A stretch of DNA of 29,089 nt from a virus (lineage: Duplodnaviria; Heunggongvirae; Uroviricota; Caudoviricetes): the IMG/VR virus record IMGVR_UViG_2529292726_000018, positions 1-29,089 of that record; one strand, written 5' to 3'. The translations under genes were made by a program, and so were the position numbers. Below, one piece after another: positions 848 to 6,357 of this stretch. Numbering within the stretch: position 1 is the first letter of the stretch; each line of letters opens with the position of its first letter. A model generated the notes under the pieces. The model ran no database searches. It saw only the letters and a list, made by a program, of their open reading frames with translations, and was not told where the DNA came from.

Positions 848-1185
848 CAGATCACCACTTCGTCAAACTGACACGAAAAATCGGTATAGGTGATATGTTC
901 TGTCGCTGACCACGTTCGACACACCACTCTGATTTTTCTGTTAATACCCGGCGGGCGCCAAAAAAAAGATTTATAGCCTTCATGCCGGGCTAAAAATTTT
1001 TCAAATGAATCACGTTCATTCGCCTCAACTTTGAAATCACAGGTGAAAACGCGCAGAGAATGATTAAGTCCATTTGGACTTCGTTGCTCATAACCATCAC
1101 CAAATCTTACAGTTTTTATCGATGGTTTATTTTCTGTTTTCATTCCATCCTCTGGTAACCAGTGAAATTCTTCCGTATTAGCCAC
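847..1185 (-). CDS. Minor tail protein M (lambda gpM family)
   Basis: 112 aa; [16 protein letters not shown]...KSFFWRPPG matches the lambda gpM core. GTG start overlaps the tape-measure stop by 8 nt. Confidence 0.85.
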
Positions 1186-4100
1186 TTAACATTCCCCCAT
1201 CACGTCGCATATTTAACAGATTGCCCTGCACCCGCTGATCAACCATCCCCATAAGTGCTTTTATTGCCTGAGGGCCAATCTCTCCATTCTGGCCGTCATT
1301 TTGAATAGTGATTTGGTATACAGGGGCATAGGTAATATCTCCGCCTCCATTACCACTTTTACTATTAATAGCTCTGACACCAAGAGAACCATCGGAAGTT
1401 CGTGTTAATGGCATAATAGCTTCCGGTCCAGCCTCACCAAAAACACCAGCCCCTTTTGCAAAAGCAAAAAATTGCGGGGAATCATAAATACCGTTCGAAT
1501 ACGTGCTCAATGACGGAGACTCATAAACACCGCCCTTTGCATTCGGAATAAATTTACTAATAGCACTCCCGATAGTTCCTAAAATCCCCCCAGAAGAACT
1601 GTTACTAATGCTGTCGAAAATCCCAGTAATTGAAGCCTTTAATGCTATTCGACTAAGATCCGAAATCACGGAAGTAGCGAAAGAACGAAAATTTGCCTTG
1701 CCTGTCGTGACAAAATCACCCAGCGCATCGGTCATCCCATCAAACATCTGAGTCGTGGTTGATTTTATCTGCTCACTGATATCCTTAGTGTCATCCAGCC
1801 AGTTATTGAATCCCTGGGAGGCACCACTAACCCAGTCTCCTGCCTGAATATCGAGCTGCTCGTTTTTCTGTCTGACAATTTCTTTTTCCCGTTCCAGAGC
1901 ATCATTCAGAGCCTGCATTTTCTCTTGAAAAACATGATCTGACATTCCACGGGATTTATCTGCATAGTCACGTTCAAGTTGCAGACGCTGATTGTTATAT
2001 CCATGTTCAATCCGCAGTAATTCCTGCTGGCGTTGCTGATTTTTATCGCCAACCCCATAACCAGCAATCTGAATATCATACCCCTGCTGACGATTATCAA
2101 TCGAAGCCTGCAATGAATCACGCCATGCTGTTATTTCGGCGGATTCCTTGATTAGCCTGTTATTTTTTTCAATCGCAACATTTTTCTCCATCAACGCGGT
2201 TATTTCTTCCCGGTGTAAGAGAAGCGATTTCTGATCCTGGGTTAATTTCGTTGATGGTCGTGACTCTAGGTCGGCAATCCGCTGACGCCACTTAACCAGT
2301 TCCTGTTCAGAGGAACTTAATTTAACGGTCAACTCAGCTTGTGAACTTAGTAACGCATTCTGTTGATTCAGATGATCAATCATTCGTTGGGCTGCATCAT
2401 CAGAATAACCTTTCGCCTTTGGTTGCTTTGGATCTTTATAACGCTCATTTATTTGAGCGATAAGATTATTATATTCTTCCTTTGAATACTGATTCTTTAG
2501 CTTTTCCAGTTTTGCAAGTTCACTAGCTCTCTGCTGCTCCCGGGTCTGATATTGTTTTGAAAAGGCATCTGCTCTCTGTCTGAGTTCAATTCCTTCCTGT
2601 TGTCGCTTGTTGTAATCGTTTATTGATGAATTTAGTACGTCCTGAGCAATTTTTTCTGCTTGAAGTACGCCCAATTGCTGCTTTAATCGTGCCAGCCTTT
2701 TATTTTGAGCTCCGCCATCTCCAATGCCACCTAACCCGAAAACTCCGGGTCGGGGATTTTTTTCTATTTCATCAATTTGACGGAGAACATCTGAGATTTT
2801 TTGATCAAGGGAGGTCTCACGGCCAATATCCAGCATGGAATCCCATGCCCATTTTGCGGAGTCTGCGACAGCTTTCCATGCAGTCTCAAGATAACCAAGA
2901 TTTTCTTTAATCTGGTTGGTGCGCTGGATCATTGAGGATGAGTATTCTTCTGTCGCAATGCGGGCGGCCTCCTGCTGGTTCCCTTCATCCTGTAGCGCCT
3001 TAATCTGGTTATAAGTCGCAAGTGTCAGAAAATGGTACTGATCATTAAGTTTTGATATGGCACTGACAGGATCCTTTGCAATTTCATTGAAGTCATTAAC
3101 CAGTTGTTCGGTTGATATTCCTGTTACTTCGCTCGTTTTTACTATCGCTGTCGTCACTTGCTCCAGCGAACTGCTCGCTACCTTTCCCGAACGCACAAGC
3201 TGATTTAATACTGCCGCCGCAGCACCAGTTGTCGAATCAGCCGCATTCCCGGCACGTTGAGCTATATCGCCCAATTGCCCGCTGGTTGTCCCCAACTGAT
3301 TTCCGGTAAGAATAAGAGATTTATTAAATTCGTCCTGCTCCTGAGAGCCTTTATAGTAAGCCAGTCCTAAGACCCCAACGGCTGCTGCGGCTAGGGGAAA
3401 AGGATTAACTAATCCCAGCACATAAGAACCTACACCTTTGATCGCCGGGCCAATCCCACCGAACATATCTTTTAGCTGGCCGCCCTGCTGCATTAACACC
3501 ATAAATGGCGACTGACCAGTGGACAACCCAACAACAATATCCGTCATTTGTGCAGGCAACATGCGCATAGCAAAAGCCGTTTGTTTTGCCGACATTCCGG
3601 TTTTGCTTAATTGTGATTGAGTAACCTCAAGCTCACTCCGCATAGCACGAAGTTTTCCAGAAAGCTCCTCATACATTTCAGGAGAAAGCATCCCCTTAGC
3701 TTTTGCTTCATTGAGCTGTTTCTGTTGTTCTACCAGACGATTAAAAGCAGTTCCGACAGGATCAAGTTGAGCAATCAGACGTTGCAAAGCAACAACCTGT
3801 TCATCATGCGCTTTTGCTGCTTCTCGCTCTGCCTGAGCCTCTCCGGTAAGCTCTCGCCGTGTTTCCTGTATTTTTCGGCTATAATTCTCAAACTGAGAAC
3901 CATTTATTTTCCCGGATGCAAACGCAGCATTAAGTTCATCATGCTGTTGTTCAAGATTTCTTAGCGCCGCAGCCAGAGGGTCGATCTTGTCCAGCATTCT
4001 TTGAAAGGCCTGAGCCTGCGCTTCCTGCTGGGCGGCAGCAAGTTTTCCGGCCTTCTCGGCTTCTCTCTGCGCTTGCGCAACCCCGCTCAATTCCTCTGTG

Positions 4101-4411
4101 GTTTCATTAAGTTTACGGACAAGAAATTCATATTCTTCTTTATCAATAAGCCCTTTATCGAAAAATTTCTTTAATTCAGAATAGCGTCGACCGACAGTAT
4201 CAATTGCGGCACCAACTGGATCAATAGCTACTTTTAATTTTGCGAGCGCGTTCTTCTCATCTTCTGTTGCCTTAGTCACTTTCCCTGCGCTATTTGCAGC
4301 AGTTTCCCCAGCCTGCGTCATTTTGACTAATGAGGAGGTCAGATTGTCAGCATTATTTTTCGCTCCAGTGCTATCAATAATTATTGCGAGACGCGAGGTT
4401 TGCTCTGCCAT
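1178..4411 (-). CDS. Tail tape measure protein
   Basis: 1077 aa, Ala/Gln/Glu-rich coiled-coil-like N-terminal two thirds with a Gly-rich hydrophobic segment. Strong SD (AGGAG) before the ATG at 4411. Lies between the chaperone genes and M. Confidence 0.9.
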
Positions 4412-4430
4412 TTATTAAAACTCCTGACAA

Positions 4431-4456
4431 CAAAAAACCCACCGCGAAGTGGGTTT
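4431..4456 (-). terminator. Intrinsic terminator-like hairpin upstream of the tape measure gene
   Basis: Minus-strand RNA forms AACCCAC-(6 nt loop)-GUGGGUU followed by UUUUUUG. Sits in the 165 bp gap between the T-frame stop (4577) and the tape-measure start. Confidence 0.5.
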
Positions 4457-4576
4457 CAGGCGACATAATAGTAGATATAGCGATTACGAGGCCACGCAAT
4501 GCTTTTCTCCAGGAGCATCATCGATTTAATTAAAGACACCATCACATCTCTGTAACAGAGTGTACGTAATTAACAA

Positions 4577-5346
4577 CTACACACACTGCTCCTGAAAATA
4601 CTGGTCATCCAGTGCAAAGATCACTGCTTCAAATTCATCGCGCTCAATCAATACCGGATGAGTGGCTAAATATTCATTTATCTCTGTCAGAGATAAAGGC
4701 AAAGGCACCCCAGCCATTCCAGCATAACGTCGGGCACGGGATATTACCGAATAGGCGTACAACAACTCCTTAAGCACCGGGTCTATTTCTGGTTCCGGTA
4801 TCGGTGGCAACCTGAGTTTTTCTCGCTTCCATCTTGCCTTTCCCCCCCTTTCTCCCCCGAACTCCGATAACCACCGCTGGGCAGCTATGGCTTTTTTATC
4901 GTATCCTGCTTCTGCTGCTCTTTACCCTGGGCGATGCTGGCTGCTTCTGCAAGGATCTGCCAGTACAACTCTGGATTCTGCTTAAGCAGCGCGATCCCTC
5001 GTTCTGCCGTATATTCCAGTGCAACCTCAACACCATTAACCAGTTCACCAACCCCTTTCCAGTCTTTCAGCAGATAACGAGCGGCATTATCAATGAGTAA
5101 ATCATCAACAGAATCCACCTCGGAAACCTTTGAAATATCAAACTCCTTCGTTCCGACGTGCAAACTGGCATCCATTTTCTCAATGTGGCGACGGATTAAT
5201 GCATTACGGGAGCGATACTGATCGTTATCGCTGCTTGCCACCAACAGTTTTAACCCGTCTACAGGTTTTAAGTCCTTCATTGGCGTAAACCAGCGTTCTC
5301 CACCAATGATAATTTTCTGATTAAGAATAAACATCCATAACCTCAT
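4577..5346 (-). CDS. Tail assembly chaperone G-T fusion made by a programmed -1 frameshift
   Basis: The -1 frame is open with no stop from the slippery site through to the stop at 4577 (DKKAIAAQRWLSEFGGERGGKARWKREKLR then LPPIPEPEIDPVLKELL...). Predicted product is about 254 aa. Confidence 0.7.
4885..5346 (-). CDS. Tail assembly chaperone (lambda G-like)
   Basis: 153 aa ORF directly downstream of the major tail protein gene, ending ...DTIKKP. Carries the slippery heptamer three codons before its stop. Confidence 0.75.
   Translation of the reverse strand: MRLWMFILNQKIIIGGERWFTPMKDLKPVDGLKLLVASSDNDQYRSRNALIRRHIEKMDASLHVGTKEFDISKVSEVDSVDDLLIDNAARYLLKDWKGVGELVNGVEVALEYTAERGIALLKQNPELYWQILAEAASIAQGKEQQKQDTIKKP
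4891..4897 (-). other. -1 ribosomal slippery heptamer A_AAA_AAG
   Basis: Plus 4891-4897 is ctttttt, so the minus strand reads A AAA AAG in the G frame (codons ata-aaa-aag, then cca-tag). This is the same heptamer as E. coli dnaX and is placed exactly as in lambda G/GT. Confidence 0.75.
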
Positions 5347-5394
5347 TCAATGCGTCCCCCTGTAGGGCAGTACCACAGGAGGAATAACGGAAAA

Positions 5395-6357
5395 TCAACT
5401 AATCGCCTCAGCACTGGCTTTTGCGATCACGGCAGCCGGGGAATTTTTTTTTCTGGTTATCGTAGGTGCTTCATCTGCTGCGGTAATGCTCAATTGAACC
5501 TGGATAATGTCGCTATTACCCCCATCAGGCCATTCACCTGACACCTGAACCTTCGGGAAACTGAAAGTGTATGCCCCCTCTCCATTCGAAAGCGTGAAGC
5601 TGAACGGAACTGTTTCTCCAGTCAGTGTTTTACTCCAGATTTCCCACGCGGCTTTAGACCATGAAAGCGTCACCGTACCGGACGGTGTAAAAGTAGTCGG
5701 AATATTTGCTCCTGCATAAGGCGAGCCAGTCCCGATACAACGCTGTGTCTGGAGTTTGTTATCGAACTGAATATCAAAACTGTCGATACAAAAACCGTTA
5801 CCTCCGGCAACACCATTCAGGCTTACTGCTGAAACCTCCTTAAACGAATAACGTAGCTTTCCTGCACTATCCACAGGTTCGCCTTTGATAAAATTCGTAT
5901 CATCGGCCTTTGATTCCCAGTCCAGTCCGGCAAAGGTTACGGTCGCTGTAATATCGCCGTCGTTAGGGATCTGCATTTTCCATGAGCCAACCTGCGCTCC
6001 TCTGACGACAGAGGCAATTCCGACATCGGACGCATAGGTCGCCAGAGAAAATGTTATTCGCTCATTCCCCATTGTCAGAGAATCGCCTGACCATTCCGCG
6101 CCGAAACAGGATGCAAGAAAATCATCATGTTGACCCCAGCGAAATTTGGTACCAACATCACCGCCGACATCCACAGTGCCAGGCGTCGCCCCCTGAGCCA
6201 TCCGGGAGCCACCAATCTCATTATTTTCGCCTTTATTCTGGGTGGGTTTTACTCCCCAGCTTGTGCGTTTTAATAAACTCCAGTCACCACTTGCTGGCGT
6301 AGTGCCTGCAACCGTCTCCCGGATAAATGCCGAGATAACCTTTGCACCTGAACTCAC
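5395..6357 (-). CDS. Major tail (tube) protein, probably with a C-terminal Ig-like domain
   Basis: 320 aa. GTG start five nt after a strong SD (AGGAGG). Position upstream of the G/T chaperones; Thr/Ser/Gly-rich beta-type composition. Confidence 0.8.
   Translation of the reverse strand: MSSGAKVISAFIRETVAGTTPASGDWSLLKRTSWGVKPTQNKGENNEIGGSRMAQGATPGTVDVGGDVGTKFRWGQHDDFLASCFGAEWSGDSLTMGNERITFSLATYASDVGIASVVRGAQVGSWKMQIPNDGDITATVTFAGLDWESKADDTNFIKGEPVDSAGKLRYSFKEVSAVSLNGVAGGNGFCIDSFDIQFDNKLQTQRCIGTGSPYAGANIPTTFTPSGTVTLSWSKAAWEIWSKTLTGETVPFSFTLSNGEGAYTFSFPKVQVSGEWPDGGNSDIIQVQLSITAADEAPTITRKKNSPAAVIAKASAEAIS

Follow-up and report, generated by a model that had tools for sequence, protein, structure and literature searches.

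In the part of the window considered here (the window being the whole 29,089-nt stretch of viral DNA that was analysed), all genes lie on the minus strand, in the order tail terminator, tube, a pair of overlapping open reading frames (ORFs), tape measure and then M/L/K/I/J-like genes. The second ORF of the pair lies in the −1 frame, overlaps the end of the first and lacks a start codon of its own near the overlap. The features on which the analysis turns are as follows.

5395..6357, minus strand: tail tube protein gene, 320 aa, the upstream neighbour (Pfam Phage_tube_2, E 9.4e-32; RefSeq 'phage tail tube protein')
5346, minus strand: alternative upstream start (ATG) of the G-like ORF, giving 153 aa
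4885..5334, minus strand: G-like tail assembly chaperone ORF (full-length YdaY family), 149 aa from ATG 5334
4888..4921, minus strand: 34-nt overlap in which the frame change has to fall, from the −1-frame TAA to the zero-frame TAG
4897..4891, minus strand: slippery heptamer A_AAA_AAG (CTTTTTT on the plus strand) in X_XXY_YYZ phase, with codons AAA 4896..4894 and AAG 4893..4891
4887..4885, minus strand: zero-frame stop (TAG) of the G-like ORF
4577..4891, minus strand: T-like segment in the −1 frame after the slip, 104 codons (AIAAQRWLSEFGG...QCV), then TAG 4579..4577
1178..4411, minus strand: tape measure protein gene, 1077 aa, the downstream neighbour (Pfam TMP_2 6e-81, Tape_meas_lam_C 4e-26 and TMP_4 2e-24; PHROG 24)

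The pair thus sits between a Phage_tube_2 gene and the tape measure gene, which bears out the original prediction of a G/GT arrangement upstream of the latter. The start of the G-like gene is likely ATG 5334, which we prefer to ATG 5346 because a GAGG lies 6 nt 5′ of it and because the homologues of Klebsiella and Erwinia start at the corresponding position. At its other end the zero frame reads ...CAG GAT ACG ATA AAA AAG CCA TAG on the minus strand, as sequence and translation agree; the dinucleotide CC (4890..4889) directly follows the heptamer, and the single codon CCA separates the heptamer from TAG 4887..4885.

Both sequence and translation confirm that a perfect slippery heptamer lies in phase near the G-like stop, as had been predicted. 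Translation likewise confirms that the −1 frame is open down to 4577: counted from 4897 it holds 106 open codons before TAG 4579..4577. Upstream, the −1 frame opens at 4921, immediately after a TAA (4924..4922), and since it is closed by that codon the frame change must occur inside the 34-nt overlap, where the heptamer is the sole X_XXY_YYZ site. A Klebsiella homologue has an identical 34-nt overlap, and an in-frame scan there also finds the heptamer as the sole such site; the 34-nt overlap recurs in Klebsiella, Raoultella and Entomohabitans relatives. The first new codon of the T-like segment after the slip would be GCC 4891..4889, and the earliest possible T-frame start codon is TTG 4810, 81 nt 3′ of the heptamer. 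The predicted GT fusion comprises 252 aa from ATG 5334, or 256 aa from ATG 5346, in agreement with the approximately 254 aa first proposed. Its stretches AIAAQRWLSEFGGER and AIAAQRWLSEFGGERGGK would be diagnostic of the fusion as against a T-only product, and the predicted junction Glu-C peptide, QQKQDTIKKAIAAQRWLSE, is encoded 5′ of any T-frame start codon.

Repeats and homopolymers also occur near the junction. A 10-bp direct repeat, GCAGAAGCAG, is present in two copies 35 nt apart (4941..4950 and 4906..4915, minus strand) just 5′ of the heptamer. The T-frame linker contains a G7 homopolymer (GAAAGGGGGGGAAAGG; 4842..4848, minus strand), at which most relatives have GAAAAGGGTGAAAAGG. One IMG/VR contig (L020) carries G5 at this homopolymer and another indel, and its frame is broken; the G7 run is likely a site where sequencing or replication readily introduces indels. 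The T stop and the start of the tape measure gene are separated by a 165-nt spacer, which holds a strong terminator-like hairpin (4434..4457, minus strand; GAAACCCACTTCGCGGTGGGTTTT, followed by a further T-rich tail) and a 28-aa ORF (4456..4542, minus strand; MVSLIKSMMLLEKSIAWPRNRYIYYYVA) found unchanged in 57 related loci. In Klebsiella and Pseudomonas relatives the same position is occupied by one to four additional genes, and the spacer looks like a moron or insertion slot.

Profile searches place the products among the tail assembly chaperones. The G-like protein matches PHROG 313, 'tail assembly chaperone', with E 4.9e-46 (158 bits, profile positions 15–149 of 258), and the hypothetical 252-aa fusion matches the same profile in one stretch with E 1.7e-50 (173 bits, positions 20–246 of 258). 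As the fusion aligns in one stretch and with a higher score, some members of PHROG 313 must have been recorded as fused G-T products. The T part on its own matches PHROG 1189, a family of unknown function (E 1.5e-36), and shows a weak similarity to Pfam Phage_TAC_18 (E 5e-4, 20.5 bits, below the cut-off of 27), a family that 3 of 10 T homologues reach at E≤0.01; a match of the T part to Pfam WIYLD was set aside as chance. For the G part, no Pfam family was found at E≤1 in a local Pfam copy that does not contain PF27119.1, and no NCBIfam match. A large protein database assigns PF27119.1 to the G-like family (P0001–P0120, homologues of 4885..5334). Neither G nor T matches the lambda gpG (Phage_TAC_2) or gpT (Phage_tail_T) families in Pfam at E≤1, and NCBIfam is also negative, so that the proteins are not lambda G or T by sequence, in line with the remark of the original prediction that they are not obviously so. 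A PDB sequence-profile search with the G alignment gave no match. Among the closest known systems are the tail assembly chaperone of HK97 (PDB 2ob9) and the group of chaperones with the 'spiral' fold (3fgx, 3klu, 5ir0); the spiral tail-assembly-chaperone fold was reportedly described by Pell and colleagues in 2013.

Searches with the fusion protein (tblastn) found relatives in phages of Klebsiella (65% identity), Erwinia (55%), Pseudomonas (~32%) and Acinetobacter (31–40%). Every full-length match, together with three partial ones, came as two pieces, and the other partial matches covered the T part only. The T ORF lies in the −1 frame and overlaps the G stop in all seven loci that were fetched. 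We extended the comparison to a wider set of 11 loci from GTDB species representatives and 160 from IMG/VR; an IMG/VR scan with the Erwinia protein found no relatives. The −1 position of the T-like ORF holds for 96 of the 98 related loci analysed, the two exceptions being a contig with N and a contig with homopolymer indels downstream, in which heptamer and TAG are still present.

The slip site itself is kept as well. The sequence [A/G]T A_AAA_AAG CC is present in 157 of 166 loci (102 distinct haplotypes), and seven loci (6 haplotypes) of a Raoultella-type clade have GT G_GGA_AAG CC at the same position, a replacement that takes three coordinated base changes, preserves the X_XXY_YYZ form and yields the heptamer of lambda. 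The zero-frame stop lies 1, 7, 25 or 35 codons 3′ of the heptamer, depending on lineage, with the position of the heptamer fixed; the conserved element is therefore the heptamer and not the stop. In the alignment of G proteins, the lysine encoded by the AAG of the heptamer occupies one of only eight invariant columns. At the homologous column, the Acinetobacter phages TCUAN1 and TRS1 have GT G_GGA_AAG, 28–31 codons before their G stops, and the Pseudomonas phages phiPSA1, Aurca01 and Cruim01 have CT G_GAA_AAG CCA. The −1 reading of the Pseudomonas phages from the slip column, AIARFQWESEWAG..., is clearly homologous to the AIAAQRWLSEFGG... of the window, and two of these phages have the very same −1 translation over a stretch in which their zero-frame translations disagree at 4 of 22 residues. 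Erwinia phage Gungnir39 (L003 1962..1995) reads GTC GCA AAG TAA: the tandem heptamer is lost and A_AAG stands directly before the stop, which suggests that here a single tRNA may slip, aided by slow termination, in place of a tandem slip. Read from these sites, the frameshift mechanism is not uniform across the family, as Erwinia does without the full tandem-slip heptamer; A_AAG is the invariant core of the slip site across lineages.

We next consider nucleotide diversity by codon phase, computed in a sliding window over 49 distinct enterobacterial sequences. On the 5′ side of the heptamer, diversity is 0.34 at G-frame third positions, 0.07 at T-frame third positions and 0.10 in the remaining phase. 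Over the 80 nt from the heptamer to the first T-frame start codon, the corresponding values are 0.15, 0.35 and 0.13. With the sliding window that starts at the heptamer, synonymous-type variation thus passes from the third positions of the G frame to those of the T frame, and this switch shows a −1 frame that appears to be translated as a continuation from the slip site onward, which is only possible by a change of frame. Within the heptamer, diversity at the G-frame third positions is 0.08, 0 and 0, against an upstream mean of 0.34, and only 13% of upstream G-frame third positions are as conserved.

Taken together, position, frame, slip-site conservation, the selection switch and the PHROG 313 match support the central claim of the original prediction, a programmed −1 frameshift that joins the G-like and T-like frames. 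In our judgement the locus is very probably the tail-assembly-chaperone pair of a Rac-like lambdoid E. coli prophage, expressed by programmed −1 ribosomal frameshifting. The support for this reading is strong and comes from comparison, not from experiment. The production of a second tail assembly chaperone by a G/GT frameshift is textbook biology, being the standard route to this protein in long-tailed phages; its conservation in long-tailed phages was reportedly documented by Xu, Hendrix and Duda in 2004, and the lambda G/G-T frameshift itself is said to have been described by Levin, Hendrix and Casjens in 1993 and by Xu, Hendrix and Duda in 2004, 2013 and 2014, work that PMC5009743 reviews.

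Three other readings of the same arrangement were weighed. RNA polymerase could add an extra A on the A6 run, so that some mRNAs would encode GT in a single frame. The homopolymeric A run at the slip site would allow this, and fusions of this type are known to arise by transcriptional slippage as well (PMC5009743, PMC3711429); however, A6 is shorter than the runs reported for productive transcriptional slippage (A n>7, PMC3711429), and sister lineages with G_GGA_AAG or G_GAA_AAG have only three to four A's at the same position, which argues that slippage of this kind is not the shared mechanism. Moreover, the conservation is specific to codon phase, which matters for re-pairing of tRNA and not for slippage of the polymerase. 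We therefore regard transcriptional slippage as very unlikely.

A slighter chance still attaches to two independent genes, with a T-like protein initiated internally at TTG 4810, TTG 4762 or a downstream ATG and a heptamer that is incidental. Such a layout is how most database records, GenBank and RefSeq among them, present the region, with a separate T-frame 'hypothetical protein', and an AAGGAG occurs just 5′ of TTG 4765/4762; it lies 0–3 nt from these TTGs, however, too close for a ribosome-binding site. AAAAAAG as such is not rare in the window (14 occurrences observed vs 10.5 expected), so the heptamer alone is not unusual; the expectation for an in-phase heptamer inside the 34-nt overlap is ~0.002, its conservation in relatives is decisive, and the synonymous positions of the heptamer are frozen or co-vary. 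Independent initiation is further opposed by the 81 nt from the heptamer to the earliest T-frame start codon, which are under T-frame purifying selection and encode a peptide conserved out to Pseudomonas phages, and by the end-to-end fit of the fused sequence to PHROG 313.

The chance that the prophage is decaying, and that a mutation or a sequencing error has shifted the frame and split what is really a single in-frame ORF, is close to negligible. Prophage remnants do decay, the K-12 copy is truncated and a few database proteins are in-frame fusions or frame-scrambled (P0001–P0004), but 1074 of 5426 complete E. coli genomes show the two-frame layout, as do deposited phage records (Salmonella phage SPF_0923, for example) and genera ranging from Citrobacter to Acinetobacter. 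This excludes the error at the T run that the original prediction had named as its possible undoing, and the rare fused proteins P0001, P0002 and P0004 have other explanations (deletion, or loss of one base).

Each of these database proteins was considered, and rejected, as evidence for a single ORF. P0001 (240 aa, E. coli) results from an exact 35-nt deletion between the 10-bp repeats that puts G and T in one frame, and is presumably a constitutive fusion without free G in a defective prophage. In P0002 and P0004 the A run is followed at once by a stretch in the +1 frame, for which the loss of one base there is the simplest explanation, and P0003 enters the −1 frame 5′ of the heptamer.

Contributions from elements other than the heptamer were also looked for. 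A stimulatory structure 3′ of the slip site, which the original prediction had proposed looking for, did not emerge from folding against shuffled sequences or from RNAalifold, none being significant or conserved. The fold of the 141 nt downstream is no better than that of shuffles (z 0.68), and the same holds for a hairpin that starts immediately 3′ of the heptamer (−11.6 kcal/mol, z 0.03). In an RNAalifold analysis of 11 diverse relatives we found no conserved helix (−2.7 kcal/mol, covariation term 0), and Rfam at a permissive threshold gave no relevant match over 4300..5500. An sroH match on the terminator hairpin, outside the ORFs, was dismissed as chance (14.7 bits vs a cut-off of 80). As an upstream Shine-Dalgarno (SD)-like stimulator we could find only an AGGA that ends 6 nt before the heptamer; it was rejected as weak and too close, and is explained by conserved Gln-Asp/Glu codons.

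The lambda G-T frameshift, according to what Levin and colleagues are said to have found in 1993, also needs no stimulatory element. The lambda locus is likewise composed of two overlapping ORFs between the major tail (tube) gene and the tape measure gene, with a −1 slip at an X_XXY_YYZ heptamer that ends in A_AAG near the end of G and with no stimulatory structure evident. Its heptamer is G_GGA_AAG, whereas the window has A_AAA_AAG and sister lineages use G_GGA_AAG at the same position. The locus described here differs from lambda in that a single codon separates the heptamer from the zero-frame stop, that 165 nt containing a small ORF and a terminator-like hairpin lie between T and the tape measure gene, and that the proteins show no detectable similarity to the gpG/gpT Pfam families. 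The second instructive comparison is with dnaX of E. coli, which has the identical heptamer A_AAA_AAG, read by the single E. coli tRNA-Lys. However, dnaX has an upstream SD-like stimulator (about 10 nt) and a downstream hairpin, whereas none was found here, and it shifts at about 50% with a truncated protein as the outcome, whereas the predicted shift here extends the protein. A_AAA_AAG is the most shift-prone heptamer tested in E. coli, a 3′ CC is its most favourable context, and the motif owes its shiftiness to the single tRNA-Lys, whose pairing with AAA is better than that with AAG (PMC5009743).

We propose that most ribosomes would make the 149-aa G-like protein and stop at TAG 4887..4885. 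A minority would slip back by one base with tRNA-Lys on AAA AAG (4897..4891), read on through GCC ATA GCT... and add the 104-aa T-like domain, giving the 252-aa GT fusion. In lambda, the binding partner of G, and of the G portion of GT, is the tape measure protein; that of the T domain is the major tail protein. The G:GT ratio there is ~30:1, and the virion contains neither product (PMC5009743). By analogy, many copies of G and few of GT would coat the tape measure protein, the T domain would recruit the tube protein, and neither G nor GT would end up in the virion; the partner of the T domain would presumably be the tube protein (5395..6357) and that of the G domain the tape measure protein (1178..4411). 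We infer that the slip is ribosomal and that its efficiency is a few per cent, as we do the binding partners of the two domains.

More tentatively, the variety of slip sites may bear on the amount of fusion made. The slip position is fixed and the A_AAG lysine codon is invariant, and the rest is swapped between A_AAA_AAG, G_GGA_AAG, G_GAA_AAG and C_GCA_AAG plus stop, sites whose intrinsic shiftiness differs widely. It is possible, though we hold it to be rather doubtful, that the G:GT ratio is either tuned by lineage or buffered by context, and that the enterobacterial A_AAA_AAG-CC perhaps yields a markedly higher fraction of GT than the 3–4% of lambda.

An E. coli chromosome matches the region at 100% identity. 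Of the 1074 complete E. coli genomes that contain it, 707 cover at least 80% of the query, and it is found in ten deposited phage records at 97.8–99.9% identity. In E. coli K-12 only the part 3′ of a deletion junction survives, as the Rac prophage gene ydaY, followed by a truncated tape-measure pseudogene, ynaA; the K-12 copy of ydaY begins at the deletion junction with ynaK. Since K-12 ydaY is what remains downstream of the deletion, the G-like ORF of the window represents the full-length YdaY. In one intact RefSeq E. coli prophage record, ydaY is called as 119 aa (4885..5244, minus strand) from an internal TTG at 5244, where the intact gene has 149 aa; this looks like a mis-start carried over from the truncated K-12 model. 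Databases also contain a 246-aa ParB-N/YdaY chimera (P0040).

Among the annotated Rac-like records that were fetched, a joined coding sequence (CDS) is absent from Salmonella phage SPF_0923, from one intact E. coli prophage and from K-12. None of the feature names of the other E. coli, Klebsiella, Erwinia and Pseudomonas matches suggests a joined frameshift product, those in the listed E. coli records being only ydaY, with or without a separate hypothetical protein. A distant member of the family, Acinetobacter phage vB_AbaS_TRS1 (NC_031098), already has TRS1_18/TRS1_19 annotated as a joined CDS. Compared with the window, TRS1 has the same arrangement, the same type of tube protein and a T part that is 37–39% identical, whereas the G parts are only about 21% identical; in TRS1 a canonical G_GGA_AAG precedes the G stop by 28 codons, with an A7 run further downstream. 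In the searchable library we found no literature linking ydaY or the Rac prophage to a chaperone frameshift. The frameshift is, in the records examined, unannotated for the Rac-like lineage, and it is biologically ordinary.

The main value of the finding accordingly lies in annotation, and the understanding of the mechanism is unchanged. The series of heptamer swaps at one homologous slip position offers a natural set in which frameshift efficiency could be related to tail assembly. For E. coli, the K-12 gene ydaY (b1366, 'protein YdaY', function unknown) proves to be what truncation has left of a tail assembly chaperone gene, the intact form of which is carried by about a fifth of the complete E. 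coli genomes. Once the annotation is corrected, Rac-like prophages and related phages of Klebsiella, Citrobacter, Raoultella and Erwinia would gain a 252-aa GT protein.
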